Shown here in pieces: positions 1 to 63,970 of a DNA stretch of 64,000 nt (its first letter is position 1; each line of letters starts with the position of its first letter). The DNA is from Narcine bancroftii (taxonomy: Eukaryota). The translations under genes were made by a program, and so were the position numbers. The notes under the pieces were generated by a model. The model was not told where the DNA came from. It made no database searches and worked only from the letters and a program-made list of their open reading frames with translations. The stretch covers positions 193,998,001-194,062,000 of the forward strand of contig NC_091474.1 of the NCBI RefSeq assembly GCF_036971445.1, read 5' to 3'.

Positions 1-1632
1 CAGACTAAGGAGGCCTTGGCCAACACGATGATGCTGGTACACCCACATATGGATGTACCGATGGCCCTCACAGTAGATGCTTCCAACACCGCCATGGGCA
101 CAGTCCTGAAGCAGTTTGTAAATGACTAATGGCAGCCTCTCACCTTCTTCAGTAGACACCTGCAGCCGGCCGAGTTGAAGTACAACACATTTGACAGGGA
201 GTTGCTCTCCCTCTATATGGCCATCCCCCACTTATTACTTCCTGGAAGGGCATCTGCCCATTGTCTACTCCGATCACAAGCCCCTAACTTTCGCCTTCTC
301 GAAGTCCTCAACAACAACAGAGACATTTATCCTACTGAATTCACCACTGCTATCCGATATTTGTTGGGAAAGCACAACATGGTTGCAGATGCACTCTCCA
401 GACTAGCAACCAATGCTCTGTCACAGGGCATAGACCACCATGATCCGGCATGTACACAGATGGATGACCCAGAGACACACAGCTTCAGAATGGCAATCAC
501 GAGCTTGCAGGTCCAGGACCACCCACTGGATGCCGACAGCACAACGTTCTTCTGCGATGTTTCCACTGGCCAGCTCCGCCCTCTCATCCCTGCTCAATGG
601 AGAATGGTTTTTGATATAATCCATGGGTTGTTGCACCCCTCAATCTGCACAATGTGGAACTGGTGTCAGTGAAATTTATTTGGCATGGCCTGCATAAGCA
701 GGTTACAGAATGGGCAAAGACCTGTACAGACTGCCAGACGGTCAAGGTCCAGCGGCACACCAGTTATAAGACTTCAACAATCCTTCCATAGTTTTCAGCA
801 AGTACACATCAACATTGTCAGGATCGTGCTACCTGCTCACATTGGTTGACAAGTACACTCGTTGGCTGGAGACTACAGAGACATCCACAAGTGTTTTCCT
901 CTCTGCCTGGTGCACCAGCAGACATTATGACAGACCAAATTGCCCAATTCACCTCTGCCCTATGGACGAAACTCTCAAAACTCCTGGGTACCCAGCTTCA
1001 TCATATCATTACCTACCACCCACAAGCAAATGGCCTAGACGAGAGGTTCCATCACCACCTCAAGGCAGTGCTGATGGCACGCCTTGAAAGGCCCAACTGG
1101 GTGGACGATCCACCCTGGGTGCTACTGGAGATATGCACGGCGCCCAAGGATGACTTTGGTGCCTCCTCCGCTGAACTGGTCTATGGTGAGACCATTTCAG
1201 TCCCTGGCCAGTTCCTCCCACCTTCAATCAAGCAGGACACTGATACTGCAGCCCTCCTTGAGAAGTTGTAGCACAAGCTGGGTTCACTTGAACTACCCCC
1301 GCCATCACAGCGTGGTCAGCCACCCTACAACTACTGCCCAGACTTGGCCTCTTGTGACTATGTGTTCATGCACAGAGGCCTGCACAGGACTCCCTTACAG
1401 CAGCCTTATGAGGGACGTACAAAGTCCTGCACAGGAACACATCCATATTCGCTCTTGACATTAGAGGCAAAGAGGAGCTTTTCACAACAGACCGATGGAA
1501 ATTGGCCCACTTTGACTTTTCCCAGCCAGTATAGGTCACATCACCAGTACACAGAGGATGGCTGCCGAAGCAACACACCTAACCCGCAATGCATCGCAAG
1601 ACCTTTGGTGCCGGTTCTGGGGGGGAGGGGGT
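1..1632 (+). mobile_element. Gypsy (Ty3) LTR retrotransposon pol relic: RNase H and integrase, frameshifted, cut by the window start
   Basis: ORF fragments KYNTFDRELL, SDHKPL, NMVADALSR (RNase H) and TDQIAQFTS, YHPQANGLDERFH (integrase); polypurine tract at about 1619-1631 just before the LTR. Confidence 0.9.
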
Positions 1633-1924
1633 TGTTGCTTTGCAACATACATAACTGCAGCAGCGAAATGGCCCTGATTGTTACGCATGGGCGGCAGGAC
1701 AGCCGCAGCAAAAATGGCGTCATGGGATGATCTCTTCCAGTCCAGACTGGAAGGGTGCATGCATGCTTGTGTCATCATGATACGAGCACCTGTGTGTAAG
1801 GGCCGGAATGGAGTCGTGCTTAAAGGCTGCGTGCAAGATGCAAATTAAATCAGATAGTTGTGATACCTGAGCACATAGCCTGCTGCTTCAGTCTCGGTGC
1901 TGCGCTCAGTCACAACACGCTACA
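1633..1924 (+). mobile_element. 3' LTR of the Gypsy element
   Basis: Begins TGTTG right after the polypurine tract, ends GCTACA, contains ATTAAA near 1844. Confidence 0.75.
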
Positions 1925-2639
1925 ATATAATAATTTTTGTATTCATCGAAAGAAAAATTTAGGTGCTTCAAGATGAATTAATTTAGAAATTAAATCTACC
2001 AAAAAAAATTCTCTTCTTTCGATACTTGGAGCACCGTTACCTTTTCTGGCCTCCAAACTAACTGAAAATTTTGTTGTTAGACCTATGTTGAGAATCTGGT
2101 TTCAATTTAGGAAACATTTTGGGTACCATACATTTTTATTAATTAGTCCTATTTTAGGTAATTCCTTTCTTTTGGTTCAAGATATCAGTTTCCAATATTG
2201 GTCAAATTTAGGTATCCAATCTTTTTTATATATTTTTACTGACCAAAATCTTGTCTCATTTGAACAATTATCCACCAAATTTACAATACCTAGATATAAT
2301 TTTTTTCATTATTTACAAGTTAGGAGCTTTTTGAATTCTTTAATTTTGAAGCTCAGTGAAGACCTGGAACCTCTTAATGAGAATGATTTATCATTTTCAA
2401 CCTAATTATAAAATTATAAAATTCGAGAGATAGTTCCCTAGATAGAATTTTTAAAAATTATGGGAACAAGATTTTCAAGAGCTAATTTCTGAAACTACGT
2501 GGAATTCTATTTTGAAGCGAGCGCATTCAACTTCACTTTGTGCTAGACACTCATTTTGAGTGTTTGAGGTAGTACACCCGGCCCACTATTCCACAGTTCA
2601 ATTGGCTAAATTATATTCTAATCCCTCTTCTAAATGTGA

Positions 2640-3858
<1,219 letters not shown>

Positions 3859-3878: not shown

Positions 3879-4342
3879 GACACCACCTTAACGCATTCCA
3901 TTTCTCCTGCCTCAGATCCATCCTAGGCTACTCATGATGCGACAGTCACAAATGTCCATGTCCTGGAGAAGACTGGAAGTACGGACCTCTACTCAATCAT
4001 CCACATTCGCCACCTGCAGTGGGCTGGCCACATTGCCCGTATGGAGGACGGCTGATTGCCCAAATATGTCCTCTATGGTGGGCTTCCAGATGCTCCTCGC
4101 CCTGTTGGCCACCTACATCTTTGCTACAAAGATGTAATCAAGTGCGATCTCCACTCATTCCATGTCAACCATACTGACTGGGAGGGCCTCGCAAAAAATT
4201 GCACTGCATGGCATTCTGCTATTTGCAGTGACACATCACAACATGTCAACAACTACAAAAAGTTCTGTGAGGGCAGAAGAGCTACAAGGTACCGTGTTCA
4301 TCTTTGCTCGTGAAGGGATGGGCCGTGATGACGACGATGATG
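3879..4342 (+). mobile_element. Old RTE-clade LINE 3' fragment with (GAT/GAC)n tail
   Basis: WAGHIARMEDG.LPKYVLYG-like motif; flanking direct repeat AACTGAAG at 3871-3878 and 4343-4350. Confidence 0.75.
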
Positions 4343-27410: not shown

Positions 27411-28880
27411 GGCACTTTCAGGTGGCCAATTGCCCCGCTTGTAAAGCTGCATATTTTGGCAATATGTGGCTGTTGGGAGGCCACGTGAATGTGCAGGAGG
27501 CACTTGCAAGGTGAACTTTGTAACCCTCCTCCGAGAGCCTCCCCAGCTGTCTGAATGCTGCCACCTAAAAGTGGCTGCATTTGGGATGAGTCAGCTAGCG
27601 AGCACCTGACAGCTCCTCTCCCAGCTGCCCCTTCCCCTGGCGCAGGACATCGGGACAGGAGCAGCTGCCTGGGCTGTCAGCGCGGGAACTGCGGGGCTGG
27701 AGTGGCCGGCGGGGGAGAGCGGGGGCTGGAGCGGCCGGCGGGGGAGAGCGGGGGCTGGAGCGGCCGGCGGGGGAGAGCGGGGGCTGGAGCGAGAGCGGGG
27801 GCTGGAGCGGCCGGCGGGGGAGAGCGGGGGCTGGAGCGGCCGGCGGGGGAGAGCGGGGGCTGGAGCGGCCGGCGGGGGAGAGCGGGGGCTGGAGCGGCCG
27901 GCGGGGGAGAGCGGGGGCTGGAGCGGCCGGCGGGGGAGAGCGGGGGCTGGAGCGGCCGGCGGGGGAGAGCGGGGGCTGGAGCGGCCGGCGGGGGAGAGCG
28001 GGGGCTGGAGCGGCCGGCGGGGGAGAGCGGGGGCTGGAGCGGCCGGCGGGGGAGAGCGGGGGCTGGAGCGGCCGGCGGGGGAGAGCGGGGGCTGGAGCGG
28101 CCGGCGGGGGAGAGCGGGGGCTGGAGCGGCCGGCGGGGGAGAGCGGGGGCTGGAGCGGCCGGCGGGGGAGAGCGGGGGCTGGAGCGGCCGGCGGGGGAGA
28201 GCGGGGGCTGGAGCGGCCGGCGGGGGAGAGCGGGGGCTGGAGCGGCCGGCGGGGGAGAGCGGGGGCTGGAGCGGCCGGCGGGGGAGAGCGGGGGCTGGAG
28301 CGGCCGGCGGGGGAGAACGGGGGCTGGAGCGGCCGGCGGGGGAGAACGGGGGCTGGCCAAAACAATGCCGGTCGGTACCCAACTCAAGCACCATTACTGA
28401 CTTTCCGGCCGCTCCAGCCCCCGTTCTCCCCTGCCAGAGCTCCAGACCCTGCTCTCCCCTGCCGGTGCTCCAGCCTCCTCCCCTGCCAGCCGCTCCAGCC
28501 CCGTGAGTGGGGAGAGAGCGGGACAGCGGTATCATTGTGGGAACGTCCCATGCGGGATGTCCCCATGCTGACAGCCTGTGCCGGCCGCCTGACAGTGTCG
28601 GGACTGAATTTATGAGTGGGGAAAGAGTGGGGCAGTGGGATCAGTGTGGGTGCGCCTGGCGCGGGATGTCCCTGCGCTGATAGCCTGCGCTGGCTGTCCC
28701 AGTTGACAGCCAGCAATCCTGAATTGACACCCCAAGGGACAGGAGCCGGATTGCGCTCAGATGCGCATCACGCCACAGCTGTCCTTTCAGGTGGCCAATG
28801 CTGCCACCTGAACTGCAATTTAAAGGGACGCTTCGGCTTCTTCAGGCGCATTCTTAGCTGAGAATGCACCTGAAAAAGCC
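27411..28880. mobile_element. GC-rich palindromic MITE (PIF/Harbinger-like termini) containing a minisatellite
   Basis: Terminal inverted repeats GGCACTTTCAGGTG ... CACCTGAAAAAGCC in TA-rich flanks; internal inverted subrepeats. Confidence 0.65.
27692..28356 (+). repeat. 29-bp minisatellite (GGGGGAGAGCGGGGGCTGGAGCGGCCGGC), about 23 copies
   Basis: 29-bp period read directly; one truncated unit near 27790; last two units carry an AGAAC variant. Confidence 0.95.
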
Positions 28881-29154: not shown

Positions 29155-32100
29155 AGGGTTGGGAATCTGAATCTTAGTGCTGAGATTAAGGTAGAAAGAA
29201 ATCAAGGTGTAATGGTAGGCAAAGTTAAAATTGGAAATAAGTCCAAATTGATAGGCAGCAAACAAGACAAAAAAAGACAAAGGAAAAGACCAGATAATTT
29301 GGTGAACAATGGAACTACAGAGAAATCAGATACTGGTCGAAGGGTAATTGTGCTTGTATGCAGAGTATTAGGAATAAGGTAGATGACCTAGTTGTGCAGA
29401 TTCAGATGGTAAGGTATGACATTGTGGCCATCACCGAAACATGGCTGAATGAGAAATCTGATTGGGAACTGAATGTACAGGGTTACACCTTGTATAGGAA
29501 AGATAGGCAGGTAGGTAGAGGGGGTGGCCTGGCCTTGATGGTAAACAATGCTATTAAATCACTTGAAAGAAGGGACATGGGGACAGAAATTGTGGAATCT
29601 TTATGGGTTGAAATAAGAAATGGCAAAGGTAAAAAGAATTTACTAGCTGTAATATACAGGCCCACAAACACCAGCCGGGAAGTGGACTGTGAACTGCAGC
29701 TGGAAATAGAAAAAGCATGTCAGAAGGAGAATGTCAAGATAATTATGGGAGATTTTAATATGAAAGGGGATTGGGAATGTCAGGAAAGTACAGGATCTCA
29801 GGATTATAGAATGCCTAAAGGATGGCTTTTTGGAACAGTTAGTCGATCAGCCCACCAGAGGATCACCAGTTTTGGATTGGGTGACGTGTAATGAACCTGA
29901 GGTGATTAGGGATTTAAAGGTTTTGAAGCCCTCAGGAAGTAGTGATCATAACATAATAGAGTTCATCTTCCAATTTGAAAGGGAAAAAATGATATCAGGT
30001 GATCAATTTTTCAATGGATCAAAGGGAATTACAGTGGTATGAGAGGGGATCTGACCCAAGTTGATTGGAAAAAGAAAGCTACATTGTGGGATGGGGGGGA
30101 GGGAATGGCAGATTAGAATTGGTTGATATTTCTACAAGAAAAATAAAGCACAGAATAGGTATATTCCAAGGAAAATTATAAATGGTAAAATAACGCAGAT
30201 GTGGCTAACAAGAGAGGTTAAAGCTAAAACAAAAGCAAAAGGGAGAGCATATAAGGTAGCAAAAATTACTGGAAAAGCAGAGGACTTGGAAAATTTTAAA
30301 AACTTACAGAGACAAAGAAAGTCATCAGGAAAAAAAGATGAATTATGAAAGGAAATTGGCAAATAACATACAAAAGAATACTAAGAGTTACTTCAAATAC
30401 ATAAAAAGTAAAAGAGAGACAAGGGTAGATATAGGGCTGATTGAAAATGAAGCTGCAGAAATTATAATGGGTAACAAAGTGATGGCAGAGGAATTAAATG
30501 GATATTTTGTGCCAGTCTTCACTGTGGAGGACAGTAACAATATACCTGATATTCAAAGGTCTCCAGGAATAGAATTAAATACAGTCAACTTAGGAAGGTG
30601 AATGGTCTAAAATTAGATAAGTCTCCAAGAATGGATGAAGTGCACCCACCCACTCGTTCTGAAGGAGGTGGCCTTGGAGATTGTAGAGGCATTGGAATTG
30701 ATTTTCCAGAAATCAATAGACTCAGGCATGGCTCCCGAGGATTAGAAGGTTGGAAATGTAGTTCTGCTGTTTAAGAAAAAATGAAATTATAGGCCTATTA
30801 GTCTGACTTCTGTAGTTGGAAGATATTGGAATTGATCCTCAAGGAAGAGGTTATAGAATACTTTGAGGTGCATGGCATGATAGGTCCAAGCCAGCTTGGG
30901 TTCAAGATCCTGCCTGATGAATCTAATGCAATTTTTTGAAGAAATCTCAAGTAGGGTGGACAAGAGAGAGGCTGTGAATGTAGTGTATTTAGATTTTTTT
31001 AAAAAGGCCTTCAATAAGATGCTGCATAAGAGGCTGCTTAATAAGATGAGAGCACATAGAATTATAGGAAAGATATTAGACTAGGTAGAGCATAGGCTGA
31101 TAGGCAGGAAGCAAAGGGTGAGAATAAAGGGATCCCATTTTAGTTGGTTGCCTTTTAATACTGGTGTTCCATAAGGGTCAGTGTTGGGGCCACTTCTTTT
31201 CAACAATGTATATTGATGATTTTCATGAAAGAACCCAACAATGAAGACGCTGTTGACATCCGGTACCGCACGGATGGCAGTCTCTTCAATCTGAGGCGCC
31301 TGCAAGCTCACACCAAGACACAAGAGAAACTTGTCCGTGAACTACTCTTTGCAGACGATGCCGCTTTAGTTGCCCATTCAGAGCCAGCTCTTCAGCGCTT
31401 GACGTCCTGCTTTGCGGAAACTGCCAAAATGTTTGGCCTGGAAGTCAGCCTGAAGAAAACTGAGGTCCTCCATCAGCCAGCTCCCCACCATGACTACCAG
31501 CCCCCCCACATCTCCATCGGGCACACAAAACTCAAAACGGTCAACCAGTTTACCTATCTCGGCTGCACCATTTCATCAGATGCAAGGATCGACAATGAGA
31601 TAGACAACAGACTCGCCAAGGCAAATAGCGCCTTTGCAAGACTACACAAAAGAGTCTGGAAAAACAACCAACTGAAAAACCTCACAAAGATTAGCGTATA
31701 CAGAGACATTTTCATACCCACACTCCTGTTCGGCTCCGAATCATGGGTCCTCTACCGGCATCACCTACGGCTCCTAGAACGCTTCCACCAGCGTTGTCTC
31801 CGCTCCATCCTCAACATCCATTGGAGCGCTTTCATCCCTAACGTCGAAGTACTCGAGATGGCAGAGGTCGACAGCATCGAGTCCACGCTGCTGAAGATCC
31901 AGCTGCGCTGGGTGGGTCACGTCTCCAGAATGGAGGACCATCGCCTTCCCAAGATCGTGTTATATGGCGAGCTCTCCACTGGCCACCGTGACAGAGGTGC
32001 ACCAAAGAAAAGGTACAAGGACTGCCTAAAGAAATCTCTTGGTGCCTGCCACATTGACCACCGCCAGTGGGCTGATATCGCCTCAAACCGTGTATCTTGG

Positions 32101-33283
32101 CGCCTCACAGTTTGGCGGGCAGCAACCTCCTTTGAAGAAGACCGCAGAGCCCACCTCACTGACCAAAGGCAAAGGAGGAAAAACCCAACACCCAACCTCA
32201 ACCAACCAATTTTCCCCTGCAACCGCTGCAACCGTGTCTGCCTGTCCCGCATCGGACTTGTCAGCCACAAACGAGCCTGCAGCTGACGTGGACTTTTACC
32301 CCCTCCATAAATCTTCGTCCGCGAAGCCAAGCCAAAGAAAGAAAATTGATGATTTAGATTGTGGATTACAGATGACACCAAGATAGGTGGTAGAGTATGA
32401 AGTGTAGAAGAAATCAAAAGCTTGCAGAGAGACAGACAACTATGGAGAATGGGCGAATGGCAGATGAGAAATAATGTTGAGAAATGCACGGTTGTGCATT
32501 TTGGTAGAGGAAATAAACAGTCCGATTATTATTTGGATGGGGAGAAAATTCATACCTCTGAAGTACAAAGGGACTTGGGGGTCCTCGTGCAGGATAACCT
32601 GAAAGTTGACTGCCAGGTTGGAATGGTGGTAAAGAAGGCAAATGCTATGTTGGCATTCGTTTCAAAGGGGATTGTGTATAAGAATAAAGATGTTGATGAG
32701 ACTCCATGAGGCACTGGTGAAACCTCATTTGGAGTACTGTGTGCAGTTTTGGGCCCCATATCTTAGAAAGAACATAGCAAGGTTGAAGAGGGTACAGAGG
32801 AGGTTTACCAGAATGATTCCAGGAAAGAGAAGGCCAACAAATAAGGAATGCTTAGCGGCTCTTGGACTCTATTCATTAGAATATAGAAGAATGAGAGGGG
32901 ATCTCTGAAATATTTTGAATAATGAATGGATTGTAGATTGGACAGAGTAGATGTAAATAAGATGTTTCCCCTGTTGGGTGAAACCAGGACAAGAGGGCAC
33001 AATCTTAGAATTAAAAAGTACTAATGTATAACAGAAATAAGGAGAAATTTCTTTAGCCAAAGTAGTGGAATTCGTTGCCAGATGCAGCTGTGGAGTCAGG
33101 ATCATTGGGGGAATTTAAAGGGGAAATTGATAGGTATCTAATTAGTCAGGGTATCATGGGATATGGGGACAAAGGCGGAACTTGGAACTAGATGTGAGAA
33201 CAGTTTAGCTCAGGGAGGTTTTACAGAACAGGCTTGATAGGCCAAATGGCCTGCTCCAGTTCCTTTTATTTGTGATCTTGTGG
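29155..33283 (+). mobile_element. CR1 LINE ORF2 relic (APE endonuclease and RT), split by an RTE insertion
   Basis: YDIVAITETWL, IIMGDFN, GSSDHNII, VVYLDF, HLEYCVQFWAPYL motifs with stops and frameshifts. Confidence 0.9.
31223..32344 (+). mobile_element. Young RTE-clade LINE, 5'-truncated, uninterrupted RT C-terminal ORF
   Basis: LLFADD, FTYLGC, LRWVGHVSRM and C-terminal CNRC...H zinc motif; (GAAA)n tail; TSD ATTGATGATTT at 31212-31222 and 32345-32355. Confidence 0.95.
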
Positions 33284-41630: not shown

Positions 41631-41757
41631 CACTCGCGACCTGTTTGACGTCTTGAACGATCATCAAAAAGGTAAAATGATGCTACCTTTGCTAAGTACC
41701 AACTAACCTCTCTCTATAACTGCACTTCTGTACTACATCTAACTTGTCATACTATGT

Positions 41758-43580
41758 CTTCTTTGGCTTGGCTTCGCGGACGAAGATTTATGGAGGGGGT
41801 AAAAAGTCCACGTCAGCTGCAGGCTCGTTTGTGGCTGACAAATCCGATGCGGGACAGGCAGACACAATTGCAGCGGTTGCAGGGGAAAATTGGTTGGTTG
41901 GGGTTGGGTGTTGGGTTTTTCCTCCTTTGCCTTTTGTCAGTGAGGTGGGCTCTGCGGTCTTCTTCAAAGGAGGTTGCTGCCCGCCAAACTGTGAGGCGCC
42001 AAGATGCACGGTTTGAGGCGATATCAGCCCACTGGCGGTGGTCAATGTGGCAGGCACCAAGAGATTTCTTTAGGCAGTCCTTGTACCTTTTCTTTGGTGC
42101 ACCTCTGTCACGGTGGCCAGTGGAGAGCTCGCCATATAACACGATTTTGGGAAGGCGATGGTCCTCCATTCTGGAGACGTGACCCATCCAGCGCAGCTGG
42201 ATCTTCAGCAGCGTGGACTCGATGCTGTCGACCTCTGCCATCTCGAGTACTTCGACGTTAGGGATGTAAGCGCTCCAATGGATGTTGAGGATGGAGCGGA
42301 GACAACGCTGGTGGAAGCGTTCTAGGAGCCGTAGGTGGTGCCGGTAGAGGACCCATGATTCGGAGCCGAACAGGAGTGTGGGTATGACAACGGCTCTGTA
42401 TACGCTTATCTTTGTGAGGTTTTTCAGTTGGTTGTTTTTCCAGACTCTTTTGTGTAGTCTTCCAAAGGCGCTATTTGCCTTGGCGAGTCTGTTGTCTATC
42501 TCATTGTCGATCCTTGCATCTGATGAAATGGTGCAGCCAAGATAGGTAAACTGGTTGACCGTTTTGAGTTTTGTGTGCCCGATGGAGATGTGGGGGGGGC
42601 TGGTAATCATGGTGGGGAGCTGGCTGATGGAGGACCTCAGTTTTCTTCAGGCTGACTTCCAGGCCAAACATTTTGGCAGTTTCCGCAAAGCAGGACGTCA
42701 AGCGCTGAAGAGCTGGCTCTGAACGGGCAACTAAAGCGGCATCGTCTGCAAAGAGTAGTTCACGGACAAGTTTCTCTTGTGTCTTGGTGTGAGCTTGCAG
42801 GCGCCTCAGATTGAAGAGACTGCCAACCGTGCGGTACCGGATGTAAACAGCGTCTTCATTGTTGGGGTCTTTCATGGCTTGGTTCAGCATCATGCTGAAG
42901 AAGATTGAAAAGAGGGTTGGTGCGAGAACACAGCCTTGCTTCACGCCATTGTTAATGGAGAAGGGTTCAGAGAGCTCATTGCTGTATCTGACCCGACCTT
43001 GTTGGTTTTCGTGCAGTTGGATAATCATGTTGAGGAACTTTGGGGGACATCCGATGCGCTCTAGTATTTGCCAAAGCCCTTTCCTGCTCACGGTGTCGAA
43101 GGCTTTGGTGAGGTCAACAAAGGTGATGTAGAGTCCTTTGTTTTGTTCTCTGCACTTTTCTTGGAGCTGTCTGAGGGCAAAGACCATGTCAGTAGTTCCT
43201 CTGTTTGCGCGAAAGCCGCACTGTGATTCTGGGAGAATATTCTCGGCGACACTAGGTATTATTCTATTTAGTAGAATCCTAGCGAAGATTTTGCCTGCAA
43301 TGGAGAGCAACGTGATTCCCCTGTAGTTTGAGCAGTCTGATTTCTCGCCTTTGTTTTTGTACAGGGTGATGATGGTGGCATCACGAAGATCCTGAGGCAG
43401 TTTACCTTGGTCCCAACAAAGCTTGAAAAACTCATGCAGTTTGGCATGCAGAGTTTTGCCGCCAGCCTTCCAGACTTCTGGGGGGATTCCATCCATACCT
43501 GCTGCTTTGCCACTTTTCAGTTGTTCGATTGCCTTATATGTCTCATCCAGGGTGGGAACCTCATCCAGCTCTAGCCTTAG
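41758..43580 (-). mobile_element. Young RTE LINE, 3' half (RT, C-terminus, 3' UTR, GAA tail)
   Basis: KAAGMDGIPPE, SQCGFR, FVDLTKAFDTV, GVKQGCVLAP, LLFADD; one +1 frameshift in a G-run near 42592-42599; nearly identical to the 31223 copy; left TSD TCATACTATGT at 41747-41757. Confidence 0.95.
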
Positions 43581-46500
43581 AGCGCACTGCACTCCACCTA
43601 AAAGCTCCTTTGCGCAGGCCCGAGGACAGGTCCACGTCCTCCCCCTCCACGTCCTCCCCCTCCACGTCCTCCCCCTCCACGTCCTCCCCCTCCACGTCCT
43701 CCCCCTCCACGTCCTCCCCCTCCACGTCCTCCCCCTCCACGTCCTCCCCCTCCACGTCCTCCCCCTCCACGTCCTCCCCCTCCACGTCCTCCCCCTCCAC
43801 GTCCTCCCCCTCCACGTCCTCCCCCTCCACGTCCTCCCCCTCCACGTCCTCCCCCTCCACGTCCTCCCCCTCCACGTCCTCCCCCTCCACGTCCTCCCCC
43901 TCCACGTCCTCCCCCTCCACGTCCTCCCCCTCCACGTCCTCCCCCTCCACGTCCTCCCCCTCCACGTCCTCCCCCTCCACGTCCTCCCCCTCCACGTCCT
44001 CCCCCTCCACGTCCTCCCCCTCCACGTCCTCCCCCTCCACGTCCTCCCCCTCCACGTCCTCCCCCTCCACGTCCTCCCCCTCCACGTCCTCCCCCTCCAC
44101 GTCCTCCCCCTCCACGTCCTCCCCCTCCACGTCCTCCCCCTCCACGTCCTCCCCCTCCACGTCCTCCCCCTCCACGTCCTCCCCCTCCACGTCCTCCCCC
44201 TCCACGTCCTCCCCCTCCACGTCCTCCCCCTCCACGTCCTCCCCCTCCACGTCCTCCCCCTCCACGTCCTCCCCCTCCACGTCCTCCCCCTCCACGTCCT
44301 CCCCCTCCACGTCCTCCCCCTCCACGTCCTCCCCCTCCACGTCCTCCCCCTCCACGTCCTCCCCCTCCACGTCCTCCCCCTCCACGTCCTCCCCCTCCAC
44401 GTCCTCCCCCTCCACGTCCTCCCCCTCCACGTCCTCCCCCTCCACGTCCTCCCCCTCCACGTCCTCCCCCTCCACGTCCTCCCCCTCCACGTCCTCCCCC
44501 TCCACGTCCTCCCCCTCCACGTCCTCCCCCTCCACGTCCTCCCCCTCCACGTCCTCCCCCTCCACGTCCTCCCCCTCCACGTCCTCCCCCTCCACGTCCT
44601 CCCCCTCCACGTCCTCCCCCTCCACGTCCTCCCCCTCCACGTCCTCCCCCTCCACGTCCTCCCCCTCCACGTCCTCCCCCTCCACGTCCTCCCCCTCCAC
44701 GTCCTCCCCCTCCACGTCCTCCCCCTCCACGTCCTCCCCCTCCACGTCCTCCCCCTCCACGTCCTCCCCCTCCACGTCCTCCCCCTCCACGTCCTCCCCC
44801 TCCACGTCCTCCCCCTCCACGTCCTCCCCCTCCACGTCCTCCCCCTCCACGTCCTCCCCCTCCACGTCCTCCCCCTCCACGTCCTCCCCCTCCACGTCCT
44901 CCCCCTCCACGTCCTCCCCCTCCACGTCCTCCCCCTCCACGTCCTCCCCCTCCACGTCCTCCCCCTCCACGTCCTCCCCCTCCACGTCCTCCCCCTCCAC
45001 GTCCTCCCCCTCCACGTCCTCCCCCTCCACGTCCTCCCCCTCCACGTCCTCCCCCTCCACGTCCTCCCCCTCCACGTCCTCCCCCTCCACGTCCTCCCCC
45101 TCCACGTCCTCCCCCTCCACGTCCTCCCCCTCCACGTCCTCCCCCTCCACGTCCTCCCCCTCCACGTCCTCCCCCTCCACGTCCTCCCCCTCCACGTCCT
45201 CCCCCTCCACGTCCTCCCCCTCCACGTCCTCCCCTCCACGTCCTCCCCTCCACGTCCTCCCCCTCCACGTCCTCCCCCTCCACGTCCTCCCCCTCCACGT
45301 CCTCCCCCTCCACGTCCTCCCCCTCCACGTCCTCCCCCTCCACGTCCTCCCCCTCCACGTCCTCCCCCTCCACGTCCTCCCCCTCCACGTCCTCCCCCTC
45401 CACCCCCTCCACCCCCTCCACGTCCTCCACGTCCTCCCCCTCCACGTCCTCCCCCTCCACGTCCTCCCCCTCCACGTCCTCCCCCTCCACGTCCTCCCCC
45501 TCCACGTCCTCCCCCTCCACGTCCTCCCCCTCCACGTCCTCCCCCTCCACGTCCTCCCCCTCCACGTCCTCCCCCTCCACGTCCTCCCCCTCCACGTCCT
45601 CCCCCTCCACGTCCTCCCCCTCCACGTCCTCCCCCTCCACGTCCTCCCCCTCCACGTCCTCCCCCTCCACGTCCTCCCCCTCCACGTCCTCCCCCTCCAC
45701 GTCCTCCCCCTCCACGTCCTCCCCCTCCACGTCCTCCCCCTCCACGTCCTCCCCCTCCACGACCTCCCCCTCCACGTCCTCCCCCTCAAAAGATGTTCAC
45801 AAACTCAAGCTAGCATGCTGGAACATCAGAACCATGCTAGACAAGGCTGAAAGCCACCGACCTGAACGTCGGTCTGCCCTCATTGCACATGAACTCCTCA
45901 GACTTGACATCGACATAGTCGCTCTCAGTGAAGTCCGCCTGGCAGATGTAGTAAGCCTCCAAGAACGCGGTGCGGGATACACACTCTACTGGTCTGGCAA
46001 GCCTTCGGATGAACGACGCCTATCTGGTGTAGGCTTCATGGTCAAGAGCTTCATTGCCTCCAAACTCGAAAACCTTCCGACAGGCCTCTCGGACCGAATC
46101 ATGTCCATGCGACTCCCCCTTCAAAACAAGCGTCACATCACCCTCATCAGTGTCTATGCTCCAACCCTCCAGGCGGAACCAGCAGAAAAGGACAAGTTCT
46201 ACACCGACCTGCGCAACCTCAACCAACGCACCCCTACAGCAGACAAGGTTGTCATCCTGGGCGACTTCAACGCTCGTGTCGGCAAAGACTCAGAAACCTG
46301 GCCAGGAATCCTGGGCAAGCATGGCGTCAGCAAGTGCAACGACAATGGGCGCCTCCTGTTGGAGCTCTGCGCAGAACAGCGGCTTGTCATTACAAACACC
46401 CTTTTTCAGCAGAGGGACAGCCTTAAGACCACCTGGATGCATCCCTGATCCAAACACTGGCACCTCCTGGACTACATCCTGGTGCGAGAAAGTGACAAAC

Positions 46501-47224
46501 GAGATGTGCTCCACACCAGGGTCATGCCTAGCGCGGAATGCCACACTGACCACCGGCTAGTTCACTGCAAGCTCAACCTTCACTTCAAGCCAAAGCCCAG
46601 GAACAATAAAGCCCCCAGAAAGAGGTTCAATGTTGGAAACCTGCAGTCAGAGGAAGCGAGAGGAAACTTCCAGGCAAACCTCAAAGCAAAGCTCGACGAT
46701 GCAACCCGCCTCACGGACCCGTCCCCTGAAACCCTCTGGGATCAGTTGAAGACTACCATACTGCAATCCACTGAAGAGGTACTGGGCTTCTCCTCCAGGA
46801 AAAACAAGGACTGGTTTGACGAAAACAGCCAGGAAATCCAGGAGCTGCTGGCAAAGAAGCGAGCTGCCCACCAGGCTCACCTTACAAAGCCGTCCTGTCC
46901 AGAGAAGAAACAAGCCTTCCGTCGCGCATGCAGCCATCTTCAGCGCAAACTCCAGGAGATCCAAAATGAGTGGTGGACTAGCCTCGCCAAACGAACCCAG
47001 CTCAGCGCGGACATTGGCGACTTCAGGGGTTTCTACGAGGCTCTAAAGGCTGTGTACGGCCCCTCACCCCAAGTCCAAAGCCCGCTACGCAGCTCAGACG
47101 GCAAAGTCCTCCTCAGCGACAAGATCTCCATCCTCAACCGATGGTCAGAACACTTCCAATCTCTTTTCAGTGCCAACCGCTCAGTCCAAGATTCCGCCCT
47201 GCTCCAGCTCCCTCAACAGCCCCT
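43581..47224 (+). mobile_element. Inverted 5' half of the same RTE LINE (N-terminus, APE endonuclease, linker)
   Basis: LACWNIRTM, DIVALSEVR, SVYAPT, ILGDFNARVG, HTDHRLV; TGA at 46446-46448; ends QLPQQP, contiguous with LRLELDE of the minus half; right TSD TCATACTATGT at 47224-47234. Confidence 0.93.
43631..45787 (+). repeat. 15-bp tandem repeat (TCCACGTCCTCCCCC), about 144 copies
   Basis: Read directly; perfect except two 14-bp units at about 45221-45251, short 9-bp units at about 45399-45430 and one T>A at about 45762. Confidence 0.98.
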
Positions 47225-48999
47225 CATACTATGTACGAGATGTCTAACTGGTCTACTTGCAAAATAACCCCGTTGACTGCATCTTGATAGATGTGACAAT
47301 AAACTTGAATGTGAACTTCCTGAGGTTCACACTGTCACAGCCAACTTAAGTTAATTTGATTTCACATTTCAGATGAAAACATATTCCAGATTAAGCTTAA
47401 GTACTGATTAATTTATATGACTCACTGGAAAATTGTCAACTGTCCATTAAAAAAAACAGAACATGTCCAATCCAGCTAATTACTGACAAGTTTACTCTCA
47501 CTTCAACAAAATGATGGTTGATGAATGATTCAACCTTGTACTTATTTCCCTCACCAGTATCTCGTGTTATCTTGGTCTGGATGCACTCCAGTGCAGAGCA
47601 CTTTCTCCTGCTTCTTTGCATCATTCAGATTACTGAATCTGGTGGAGAGAGGGTGGGTGGGAGTGGCTTTAACCCACGAGAGTGGGTTTTGGGGCCTTCC
47701 ACTCACCTAGTTAATTTCACTTTCAGTCAACACAGAGGTGCTCTCAGTTGTGTGGTTCAGCAGATATGGCCCCCAAGTAGATAAGCAAAGAATTCTTTTC
47801 ATCGATCATAACACAGAAAACGCTTGAAACATTCAGCAGGTCAGAGAGCATCTGTGGAAAAAAGAAACTGAGTTAATGTTTAGGGTCTGAGACCCTTCAC
47901 CAGGGAGAAAGGAAGATCTAGAGAAATCCTGCTAATTATTTCCAGCATCTCTATTCATAGAGGCTTGATGTTCAAATGGAAGAGCTTACAGCAAGACAGT
48001 AGCTTGTGTATTAAACATGCAAGTGTACTTCAAAATGTTTCCTTTCTGATCAGAATTTATTCACCTCCTTTCACTGGAACAGTCTTTTCAACCACTAAAT
48101 ATCACATGCAGCATATTACTACTGGCACGCACCAATTATTTGAGAATTCCAGCAAATTAGGAATTTCAAAAATAATTTGCCAAGTAGTCATTAGATAAGC
48201 ATATTATATGGAACCTTTATGTGCAATTTTTAAGTAGTTTGATTTTATCCTGCAGTAGAACAACAACTGAGCACCGAGCTCGACTTTAGAGAGGTACATG
48301 CACTTGCTATTTTGCAAGATCTATAAATGGAAGCTACCAACACATTGTTTATTTTTATGCATTCCTTTTCCTTCATTAAGAAGCCTCACCTCCACTCCAA
48401 ATCTCCTCTCCTCAATGTGGTCACTTTAAACACTCATATGGTAAACTTAGTGCCAAGCAACGATACTGAAGCATCAAGAGCTGGGATGGCAAAGTTTGTG
48501 GCAACAAATATCAGCCACTGAGACAAACAGATTTTGGTTGCATAGTTATAAAGGTACTGAACTAGCAGCTTGAAGTTGAGACCAGTAATTCTGAGGCATG
48601 CAGAGTTTAATATGATAAATTAAATACTATTATCCAGAATTCAAGCAATTAGCAAAAAAATTATAAAGTTGTAATAGATAATAACTGAAAAAAAATTAAA
48701 TGAAAAATTTAAATTTGTTAAAGTAAATGTTCTTTGAAAGATGGCGCTGGACCCCCCCTCCACCTCAGGCACAAAGCCTGCAAACCGAATAACGTGTCCG
48801 GGGTGGGGGGGGGGGGGGGAGGGTGGGGGTGGGTGTCATGACATCACTTCTGGTTTCCAGTCAGCCGGACCAGAAGTGACATAAAAGTTGGCTGGAAAGA
48901 GAATTAAAGATTTTCCTGCTCATCTTAACCTGAGCCAGAGTAGGTGGAACTTTATGAGGAATTGGCTGAAAATTTGAACTTTTTCTTTCTCTTAAAATA

Positions 49000-54391: not shown

Positions 54392-54447
54392 TCTTCTTCT
54401 TTGGCTTGGCTTCGCGGATGAAGATTTATGGAGGGGTATGTCCACGT
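54392..54447 (-). mobile_element. 56-bp RTE insertion consisting only of the 3' UTR and (GAA)n tail
   Basis: Matches the 3' ends at 32287-32340 and 41758-41815; TSD CTGTTTGTTAGT at 54380-54391 and 54448-54459. Confidence 0.9.
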
Positions 54448-55404
54448 CTGTTTGTTAGTGCTGTTGCAGAAGATACAGAGACTAAAGCAACAATTGGAAA
54501 AGAGAAAAGTCAAAGTGCAGAACCAAAATGTTAAATGTAAAAGACACAAAGATGACTTGATTGTGAAAAGGATAATGAGTGCAATGGCACTTTGTGTGAA
54601 TGCTCGCAGTATGATCAAGATCAGTGACTAGTATAAAGGGGTACGATTTAGTAGATTGGAGGAATCAAGTTGGTTGAGGCAGCCTTTAGGACTTCCTCGA
54701 ATGCATTCTTGAATCTTCACAAAATAGCTTTCTTGAACAGCATGCTATCAAATCTACAAGGGAACATGCTATCTTGGAACTGGTCCTTTGCAATGAGACA
54801 GGTAAAATTAATGATCTTGTTGTTAGGGAAACTTTGCCTGTGATGCCCTAGTCTGTGTCCCACTACCTTTTGCAGGGCTTTACACTCATGGATATTGGGG
54901 ACCCACACAACAGACCATGATGTAGCCGGTCAGCACACTTTCTGCCATACATCCTTTATGGTAACAGATATTAGTAACAGATATTCATAAGGTGTACATG
55001 GGGGGGGGGGGGGGGCAGGGGCTCAGACCATTACAGTCCAAGTTCAAAAGTCCTAAAATAAAACTCCCAAAACAAAACTTCAAGTCAGTCACATCAAATC
55101 AGTCAGTCAAAAAGGAACATGTCACAGAGTCTGGTGTCCCGGCTTGGGATTCTTAGTTTGTTTGCACTCTGGTCTTTTAGTTGGATGTGGAGACAGATGG
55201 CCGTGATCACTGTAGACTTACAACTTTCCTGAGTTTCGAATGTGGCTACCACCTTTGATTTCTTCATATAGGTATTTTCACCCAGTGACATCCTAGTCAC
55301 TACACTAGGTTCACACCTCCAAAGCCCACTTTAGGGTTAACAAGTGACCTTCTGTCACACAAATCTTTCTCTCTAAAAACCCAGTCTTGGGTCTTTGCCA
55401 TTCT

Positions 55405-60549: not shown

Positions 60550-63500
60550 GAGGTAGGTGTGACCTGTACAAAAAGGACGGGTTGCATTTGAACCCCAGGT
60601 AGTGAGCATGGGGATTCTGGAGAGGACATTTGCTAGGGTTACTCAGGAGACTTTAAACTAGAATGGCTGGGGGGCAGGGAAGCAAATGAAGGAGAAAAGC
60701 AAGGAGAAGGTTAGAGTGCAATCAAAGAAAGCTTGTTGACAGTGCTTGAGGGGGGGAAAGGCAGGTGATAGAAAAGGGGGATGCTTTATACGAAGATGGA
60801 CAGAGGTCAATTGCAAAAGATCAGAAAAGAGGTGTTGGTAAAGATAGGGGCATAAAGGAACTAAAAAGTGGGAAATCTCTAAAATACATATATTTTAATG
60901 CTAGGAGCATTGTAAGGAAGGTGGATGAGCTGAAGGTATGGACTGACACTTGGAAGTATGACGTGGTGGTGATTAGTGAAACATGGTTACAGGAGGGATG
61001 AGGGATGTGACTGGCAGCTAAATATTCCTGGATTTAGATGCTTTAGGTGTGATAGAACCGGAGGGGGGGGGGGGGGGGTGGGGCAAGAGGGGATGGGGTT
61101 GCACTACTTAGAGAAAATATTACAGCAGTGCTTAGGTGCGATAGAATAAAAGACTCGTCCAAGGAGGCTATTTGGGTGGAATTGAGGAATGGGAAAGGGG
61201 AAGTTACCACCGAATGGGGAACGCGAATTAGAGGAACAAATTAGTAGGGAGATAGCAGATATTTGTAATACGCAGAGGGTAGTGAGCATGGGGGTTTTTT
61301 AATTTCCGAATATTGATTGGGAAACCCATTCCGTGAAAGGGCTGGATGGGTTGGAGTTTGTAAAATGTGTGCAGGATAGCTTTTTACATCAATACGTGGA
61401 GGTACCAACTAGAGAGGGAGCTGTGTTGGATTTACTGTTGGGGAATGAGATGGATCAGGTGACAGAGGTATGTGTGGGGGAGCACTTCGGGTCCAGTGAT
61501 CATAGTGCCATTAGCTTCAAGGTAATTATGGAAAAGGATAGGTCTGGGCCCAGAATTGAGGTTTTTGAGTGGGGAAAAGCTAGCTTTGAAGAGATGCGAA
61601 AGGATTTACAAGGGGTGAATTACAAGGGGCGTTTTCTGGGAAGGATGTAATAGAGAAATGGAGGGTCTTTTAAAGGAGAAGTTTTAAGAATACAATATCT
61701 TTATAAACCTGTTAGGTTGAAAGGTCAGGTTAAAGGTTTGAGAGAGCCATGGTTCTCAAGGGATATTGGAAACTTAGTTCGAAAAAAGAGGGAGTTCTAC
61801 AATAAATATAAGAAACAGGGTAAAAAGATGTTTGGGTATTATATTGAATGTAAAAAGAATCTTAAGAAAGAAATTAGAAAAACTAAAAGAAACTATGAGG
61901 TGGCTATAGCAAGCAAGGTGAAAATAAATCGAAATATTTTCTACAAATATGTAAATAGCAAAAGGAAAGTGAGAGATAAAATTGGTCCAATAGAGAATCA
62001 GAAAGGACAAATGTGTGTGGAGCCAAAAGAGATGAGGGAGGTCTTGACCAATTTATTTTCCTCAGTATTTACTGAGGAGAAGGATATTGAATTGTGCAGG
62101 GTAGAGAAAGCAAAAGTGGTATATATGGAGACTATAGCATTTAAGAAAGAGGTAGTACTGGGGGTTTTGAAACATATAAATGTGGATAAATTTCCAGGTC
62201 CTGACAGGATTTTCCCCAGGACCCTGAGAAATTAGTGAGGAAATAGCGGAGGCTCTGGTAGTGATTTTTCAAATGTCATTAGAGGCGCGTATTGTGCTGG
62301 AGCATTGGCGTGTTGCGCATGTGGTTTCTTTGTTTAAAAATGGTTCAAGGAGCAAGCCTAGCAATATCGGCCTGTAAGTTTGACGTCTGTGGAAGGTAAA
62401 TTGATGGAAAGCGTTCTTAGAGATAGTATATACAAGAATATGGAGGGACGGGGTCTGATCAGGGACACTCAACACAGATTTGTGCGTGGAAAGGCGTGTT
62501 TGACCAATCTTGTTGAATTTTTTGAAGATGTGACTAGGAATTTTGATGAGGGTAGAGCAGTGGATGTTGTCTATATGAACTTCAATAAGGCCTTTGATAA
62601 GGTTCCACTTGGGAGATTAGTTAGGAAGGCTAAGTACATGGGTATTAATTTGGAGATAATCAAATGGATTCAACAGTGGCTGGAAGGAAGGTGCCAGAGA
62701 GTAGTAGTAGATAATTGCTTGTCAGGATGGAGGCCGGTGACAAGCAGCATACCTCAGGGTTTGGGATTGGGACCGTTGGTGTTTGTCATATATATTAATG
62801 ATCTGGAGGATGGGGCAGTAAATTGGATTAGTAAATATGCAGATGATACTAAAATAGGGGGAATTGTGGATGATGAAGAGGGTTTTCAAAGATTGCAGAG
62901 GGATTTAAACTGATTAGAGGAGTGGGCAGAAAGATGGCAGATGGAGTTTAATGCTGATAAAGTGTGAGGTGCTTCATTTTGGAAAGAATAATCAAAGCAA
63001 GACATATGTGGTAAATGGGAGGGCATTGAAGAATGCAGTGGAGTAGAAAGATCTAGGAATAACGGTGCATTGTTTCCTGAAGGTAGGAGCGTATGTGGAT
63101 AGGGTGGTGAAGAAGGCCTATATAAATCAGTGCATGGAATATAGGAGTTGGGAAGTAATGATGAAACTGTACAAGGCATTGGTGAGGCCAAATTTGGAGT
63201 ACTGTGTGCAGTTCTGGTCACCGATTTATAGGAAGAATATTAACAAGATAGATAGAGTGCAGAGAAGATTTACGAAAATGTTGCCTGGGTTTCAGCATCT
63301 GGAATACAAGGAAAGATTGAGCAAATTAGGTCTTTATTCCTTGGAACGTAGAAGGCTGAGAGGGGATTTGATAGAGGTACTTAAGATAATGAGAGGGATA
63401 GATAGAGTTGAAGTGGAAAGGCTTTTAGGAAAGATTGAGCAAATTAGGTCTTTATTCCTTGGAACGTAGAAGGCTGAGAGGGGATTTGATAGAGGTGCTT

Positions 63501-63970
63501 AAGATAATGAGAGGGATAGATAGAGTTGATGTGGAAAGGCTTTTAGGAAAGATTGAGCAAATTAGGTCTTTATTCCTTGGAACGTAGAAGGCTGAGAGGG
63601 GATTTGATAGAGGTGCTTAAGATAATGAGAGGGATAGATAGAGTTGATGTGGAAAGGCTTTTCCCATTGAAAGTAGGAGAGATGGATACAAGAGGTCATG
63701 GGTTGAGAGTTGATGGGCAAAGGTTTAAGAGTAACATGAGGGGGAACCACTCTCTGTGGTTACTGTGTGGAATGGGCTTCCAGGAAAGGTGGTGGAGGCA
63801 GGGTCAATTTTGTTATTTAAGAAAGAGTTGGATAAGTATATGGATGGGAGGGGGATGGAGGGATATGGGCAGAGTGCTGGTAAGTGGGATCAAAAGAGGG
63901 TATTTGGATCAGTGCAGACTAGAAGGGCCAAATTGGCCTGTTTCCGTGCTGTAATTGTTATATGGTTATA
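60550..63970 (+). mobile_element. CR1 LINE: end of ORF1 plus degenerate ORF2 (APE and RT) and 3' tail
   Basis: YKKDGLHLN, YFNARSI, ISETWL, FGSSDH, YMNFNKAFDKVP, SKYADDTKIGG, LEYCVQFWSP. Confidence 0.93.
63309..63662 (+). repeat. 118-bp tandem triplication inside the CR1 element
   Basis: AGGAAAGATTGAGC starts at 63309, 63427 and 63545. Confidence 0.92.

Follow-up and report, generated by a model that had tools for sequence, protein, structure and literature searches.

The window, i.e., the whole stretch of 64,000 nucleotides analyzed here, belongs to the genome of Narcine bancroftii (assembly GCF_036971445.1, contig NC_091474.1, positions 193,998,001 to 194,062,000 of the forward strand). It carries a rearranged copy of an RTE-type LINE, in which a long 15-bp minisatellite stands between an N-terminal coding leader and the endonuclease domain. 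The parts of this copy are as follows.

41747–41757, + strand: left TSD, TCATACTATGT, 11 bp
41758–43580, − strand: 3' half of the RTE-type LINE, from the RT to the 3' tail (RVT_1, E 8.8e-35, Pfam)
43582–43630, + strand: start of the inverted 5' piece, a 49-bp N-terminal coding leader (..APLRRPEDR)
43631–45785, + strand: (TCCACGTCCTCCCCC)n array, 145 units, coding for (STSSP)n in the family frame (TRF and splitting at TCCAC)
45786–47224, + strand: remaining part of the inverted piece, with the endonuclease domain and a linker (Exo_endo_phos, E 1.7e-11, Pfam)
47224–47234, + strand: right TSD, the first T of which is common to the element end

The 3' half corresponds to positions 1436–3254 of the post-array stretch in the full-length copy L158, and the inverted 5' part (43582–47224) joins this RT half with a 2-bp overlap. 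Twin priming is the model for the inverted 5' pieces of LINEs, and the inverted 5' piece, the 2-bp overlap and the TSD give the window element a layout which appears to be of this type. The array had been placed 50 bp from the inversion junction, and the inverted piece does begin 49 bp upstream of it, at about 43582; this nearness looks incidental to the array, and in the sample described below, six of the seven arrays with more than 50 units sit in collinear copies. Inversions of the twin-priming type are common in the family (10 of 101 copies). The family ATG, located 78 bp upstream of the array, is missing from the window copy. The post-array part of the inverted piece contains a single stop, the TGA at 46446–46448, where the relatives checked (4/4) read CGA, as the original prediction had proposed. 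A 5'-truncated sibling copy lies at 31224–32339 (+) and is 97.9% identical to the window copy; the earlier hand count of about 19 differences at about 1100 sites was close, the recount giving 21 mismatches and 2 gap openings in 1118 columns. A short 3' fragment of the element is also present at 54395–54448.

In the copy L167, the element consists of a single ORF of 1,103 aa with Exo_endo_phos and RVT_1 domains (Pfam), i.e., an AP-type endonuclease and an RT with no separate ORF1, and GC-rich monomers are located upstream. The 3' tails in the sample are of the (AAG) type, and the candidate TSDs, some of which are chance matches, are mostly 9–15 bp long. Homologues, those named including lancelet, carp, sea urchin and shrimp, reach 75% identity and none of them bears a clade name, and the structures of L1 and R2 match only at E of about 1e-20; the RTE label is provisional and comes from the anatomy. 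The 5' region of the family is a tandem array of a 169-bp GC-rich monomer (seven copies with 97% matches at 4254–5429 of L145), and the 5' ends of the elements fall at many positions within this monomer array.

Several other features were observed in the window. A second near-perfect GC-rich minisatellite, with a 29-bp unit in about 23 copies (TRF), occupies 27693–28356 inside a 1.4-kb GC-rich stretch, the ends of which share CTTTCAGGTGGCCAAT. The 5' end of a 421-aa stop-to-stop ORF at 22517–23782 (−) lies about 4 kb away from this minisatellite. This ORF is probably a single-exon GPCR, judging from its translation (7tm_1, E 4e-45, Pfam), and no match to it was found in the PDB at E 1e-30. A 118-bp × 3 tandem repeat (TRF) and fragments of LINE and LTR elements (Pfam) were identified at 63309–63662, 29298–29891, 62362–62913 and 130–1271.

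The 15-bp array was called by TRF at 43631–45787 (144.1 copies), exactly where it had been noted at first sight. Splitting at TCCAC yielded 139 perfect units, one substituted unit (T>A at 45756) and five units that fall short of 15 bp, namely two of 14 bp (45221 and 45235) and three of 9 bp (45399–45425). The description of the array as near-perfect thus stands as regards the single substitution and the absence of CpG decay, and it had left out the five short units. The array is flanked by RPEDR on the left and by SKDVHKLKLACWNIRTM on the right, with STSSP between them, and the right-flank frame reads SKDVHKLKLACWN. The view that the repeat is the element's own in-frame sequence is supported. 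In the family, the frame codes for (STSSP)n. In the assembled window copy, where the array proper measures 2155 bp (mod 3 = 1), the reading frame of the left flank does not run on into that of the right flank. The 14-bp units may be homopolymer errors. The length and purity of the array are known from one assembly, and the data from sequencing runs consist of contigs. The array of the window copy is probably neutral, given that this copy lacks both promoter and start codon and contains a stop. Taken by itself, the locus is ordinary: a dead copy carrying one long allele.

In the genome (3.33 Gb), 32,339 perfect dimers of the unit were counted, versus none of the backwards control pattern, along with 2,710 right junctions that match exactly. 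Exact one-unit copies number only 150, and the unit number in 100 sampled copies has a mode of 2 and a median of 4, so that the locus-specific birth of the array from one unit is ruled out and the statement that one unit was expanded, if extended to the family, was wrong. For this sample, we took the 100 junctions that come first among the 2,710; all of them lie on C1, and L107 and L108 form one local duplication. The unit number in these 100 copies ranges from about 1 to 279; at least 20 units are present in 11 copies, more than 50 in seven and more than 100 in four, two of which are longer than the window array, the tail of long arrays being an estimate from this sample. The sample agrees with the genome as a whole, since it contains 13.2 dimers per copy versus 11.9.

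An ATG in the context ACCATGG lies 78 bp upstream of the array in 77 of the 93 copies with a left junction, and the stretch from the array to the conserved WN motif holds no in-frame ATG, so active parents probably make a protein with a short (STSSP)n in front of the endonuclease. Unbroken ORFs run through arrays of 2 to 179 units, the longest amounting to 1,988 aa with 179 units. The full-length ORF is intact in about 18 of the 100 sampled copies (L158, L128 and others), including two with 118 and 179 units, and because of these unbroken copies the family is probably still active. In 10 of the 93 copies, all of them older ones, GACATG replaces GACAGG just 5' of the array, creating a second in-frame ATG. 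In five internally deleted copies (L072, L082, L135, L147 and L148), the first 15–145 bp after the array are joined to the last 150–330 bp; these may possibly be short non-autonomous derivatives carrying the array. As for other organisms, the contigs of organism B show a one-unit joint and loose ends compatible with further units, and the matches in organism C are short stretches around the array, none of which crosses it; both are faint hints.

The moment at which long arrays arise can be approached from the relationships and ages of the copies. In a tree of 90 of 101 copies (11 with fewer than 900 aligned bases were left out), the long arrays are scattered, their 12 tips requiring 11 changes versus a mean of 11.5 after shuffling, and the closest relatives of the long-array copies hold 3–12 units. 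As a clock, we used the private substitution rate of the body of each copy, with CpG and non-CpG sites taken apart, in 84 sample copies; these rates may take in mutations of unsampled parents. On this scale, the seven arrays of more than 30 units show no substitutions versus 66.4 expected. The 70 arrays of 1–12 units show 64 versus 35.0 expected, so the clock is not too fast. The copy L074 has 81 perfect units, although it is 3.5% away from its nearest relative. At the window locus, one substitution was observed versus 16.8 expected, in line with the proposal of an array that either postdates the insertion or is homogenised. Short arrays are inherited, since a C3A marker is present in unit 2 of 8 of the 100 copies, all belonging to one subfamily. 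Older copies have shorter arrays (median 2 versus 6; Spearman −0.42), a trend which runs counter to plain steady growth and which fits if the older parents had fewer units, an extra assumption.

Arrays filled with variant units provide a second line of evidence. Motifs made of two terminal variant units were searched for throughout the genome and returned 33 loci in all; together with a separate search at position 3, the unit positions covered were 3, 4, 5, 6, 7, 10 and 13 (7/15), all except position 3 being anchored at the right end. Takeovers by T7G were found at three loci (44, 52 and 37 units), by T7C at three (29, 10 and more than 90 units) and by A4G at three (69, 46 and 24 units), along with one each by T10G (83 units), T10C (about 90 units) and T10A (20 units, L206). 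Loci with the same variant have no rare body allele in common and are 1.5–7% apart. The variant arrays contain no substitutions versus 94.8 expected, or at most about three if the edge units are included. In L210, a nested block duplication of a marked unit was found within 212 units. Arrays filled by a private unit need repeated duplication in DNA, because an RT re-copying an RNA template would return the template unit at each round. In L202, an A4C variant array breaks down into a long irregular C/T simple repeat.

The absence of clustering on the tree, the purity far above that expected from age and the private takeovers at unrelated loci argue for expansion after insertion. The window array is thus very probably one long allele of an in-frame 15-bp minisatellite of a young RTE-type LINE, expanded after insertion at the DNA level with a bias favouring G/C. 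Copies would arrive with a short array, mostly of 1–12 units, and some of them would later lengthen in the chromosome by repeated DNA-level duplication of units and homogenisation. The steps involved might be replication slippage and conversion within the array or between sister chromatids, with a turnover biased towards G/C-richer units, and a G4 on the G-rich strand may help the expansion.

Three other explanations were considered. The first is that sequencing, consensus or polishing artefacts have inflated the length or purity of the arrays, the long arrays being nonetheless real in number. Indels of the homopolymer type do occur within arrays (the 14-bp units of the window and the C7 and C9 runs in L207), the array lengths rest on contigs, and polishing could have erased variants. 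However, neither collapse nor polishing towards the common unit can explain the pure locus-specific variant arrays, for instance those of 69 A4G, 83 T10G and 52 T7G units. In addition, both flanks and the TSD are intact in the window copy, and a contig from the runs X1/X3 bridges the right junction (47196–48600) with no differences, although it possibly comes from the source sample and is therefore not independent. We regard artefacts as very unlikely to account for the observations.

The second explanation, put forward in the original prediction as telomerase-like reiterative copying by the RTE reverse transcriptase, would build the long array during insertion. The recurrence of the expansion at one site in many copies, which was the check proposed for stuttering of the RT, was indeed observed, young copies have long arrays more often, as the above correlation indicates, and L209, L212 and L213 contain repeated copies of a marker unit that was inherited; moreover, slippage of a host or element polymerase is named as a possibility for the Gmr9 minisatellites in the part of that report consulted here (PMC3305785). 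The array should then be as old as the element, yet the long arrays, including the 81 perfect units of L074, have remained pure in old copies, and private variants, rather than the template unit, have filled arrays at unrelated loci. The other half of the check, an enrichment in inverted copies, failed: long arrays were present in one of nine inverted copies versus 10 of 75 others (Fisher p=1; 12 "partial" copies may hide further inversions). Reiteration by the RT is largely refuted as the main cause and seems more improbable still than an artefact. The RT may add to the variance of length in the youngest copies, two of which stand out when taken singly (L158, P=0.012; L075, P=0.028).

The least credible of the three is that long arrays were inherited from long-array parents or selected for a Ser/Thr/Pro linker function: the unbroken ORFs with 118 and 179 units and the inheritance of short arrays and of the marker unit speak for it, while the long arrays are unclustered on the tree, broken copies such as that of the window also hold them, and STSS occurs in the first 200 residues of none of the 120 listed homologues of other organisms, many of which are annotated from a later Met.

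The expansion after insertion seems to favour certain units. A/T>G/C changes account for 11 of the 12 takeovers and A/T>A/T for the remaining one, the neutral mutational share of A/T>G/C being 0.117 (P 6e-10, or 1.6e-4 once CpG sites are left out and 0.024 if the comparison is confined to A/T sites); L180 and L202 were excluded from this count. Two takeover loci, L178 (identical to L017) and L177 (identical to L166), were known before the searches, and without these and L181 the tally is 9/10 at best (P 4e-8, or 0.054 among A/T sites only). CpG transitions are about 10 times commoner in the element body. At the 18 loci where two terminal units had changed at a CpG, each carried at most four variant units and none (0/18) was a takeover. 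Among the arrays of at least 20 variant units, A/T>G/C changes numbered 10 versus 2.3 expected and CpG losses 0 versus 12.6 expected (with the least favourable limits of the count interval, P 0.006 and 0.001). There are counter-examples, since the inherited C3A unit fills 26 units in L209 and 11 in L210; these came from the separate, unanchored search at position 3 and stand outside the 11/12 tally.

The element body next to long arrays showed no GC bias (W>S share 0.20–0.36 versus 0.25–0.30), and a crossover hotspot is therefore not indicated. Heteroduplex mismatch repair and a greater instability, or faster slippage, of GC-richer units might both explain the bias, and both fit. That array turnover has a directional drive, in which GC-gaining units sweep several times above chance and CpG-decayed ones almost never, via GC-biased repair inside the array, is a serious possibility, though we lean slightly against it. 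If true, it would explain how such arrays escape CpG decay, and runaway (STSSP)n growth would be a built-in fate of the element copies.

As regards DNA structure, the G-rich strand of the canonical repeat has a G4Hunter score of 1.87 and is predicted to form a G4, in keeping with what had been suggested for this strand from its letters. The score does not track the takeovers: G6A, at 1.93, has none and T7G, at 1.67, has three. Hairpins were rejected as a driver: with energies of −2.7 and −3.9 kcal/mol per 90 nt they are weak, and they are not predictive, T7C having no hairpin yet three takeovers. The repeat agrees with the hotspot motif CCTCCCTNNCCAC of humans at 10 of its 11 set positions; this likeness was taken as a coincidence, since this motif is described in the part of the source consulted as active in humans and not in the chimpanzee (PMC4230742).

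The family amounts to a natural experiment: a single unit sits between identical flanks at thousands of loci, and the element body serves as an internal clock. It lets RT slippage be told from chromosomal expansion and can be used to study why hypervariable minisatellites combine a high GC content with purity. By the dimer count (32,339 × 15 bp), it would account for roughly 0.5 Mb of G4-prone sequence in the genome, and the arrays are a ready source of multilocus markers. In a literature search with limited coverage of subscription journals, repeat databases and supplements, neither this repeat nor any other in-frame VNTR of an RTE was found to be described.

Several known systems resemble this family in part. 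In the young retroelement SVA, the VNTR and the (CCCTCT)n hexamer are G/C-skewed and G4-prone, and their length varies within loci as well as from one locus to another. SVA itself is neither autonomous nor coding, whereas the present repeat is coding and belongs to an autonomous LINE. The name MMS10 is used for the B1-derived (GGCAGA)n minisatellites. Together with the MaLR-derived Ms6-hm and Alu-derived families, these are among the minisatellites known to derive from TEs (PMC6947457, PMC9659126). As described in the sections of these reports that were available, the B1-derived arrays are similar in that a repeat within a dispersed retroelement gives rise to many independent unstable arrays, and differ in that B1 is a non-autonomous SINE with a 6-bp non-coding unit, whereas the unit here is a 15-bp in-frame one in an autonomous LINE with intact copies. 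The mouse L1 has a length polymorphism region (LPR) in ORF1 and tandem 5' UTR monomers (PMC3600994), which recalls both the in-frame variation in repeat number in a LINE ORF and the 5' monomers seen here (169 bp, seven copies in L145); in the extracts of that source, however, a few units of 42–66 bp, located in a coiled coil, vary between families, whereas 1–279 units occur here between copies of one family.

In GC-biased gene conversion, A/T>G/C variants win beyond the prediction from mutation rates, according to the portion of the source available (PMC4230742), and the excess of A/T>G/C takeovers over the mutational share is alike. Unlike GC-biased conversion at a crossover hotspot, the bias is confined to the inside of the arrays and absent from the adjacent body, and instability of GC-richer units could mimic it. 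The soybean element Gmr9/GmOgre carries a minisatellite in thousands of copies of one retrotransposon, with up to 149 monomers per locus, and slippage, conversion and RT are listed as candidate mechanisms that are not told apart in the part of the report consulted (PMC3305785). As far as that text describes it, Gmr9/GmOgre is an LTR element with the array 3' of the coding region, whereas the array here lies in the ORF of a LINE, and the mechanisms are separated here, unlike there, by purity versus age and by the private takeovers. Minisatellites borne by TEs are thus already known; what is new is that the repeat stands in frame inside an autonomous LINE and that the GC bias is replicated.
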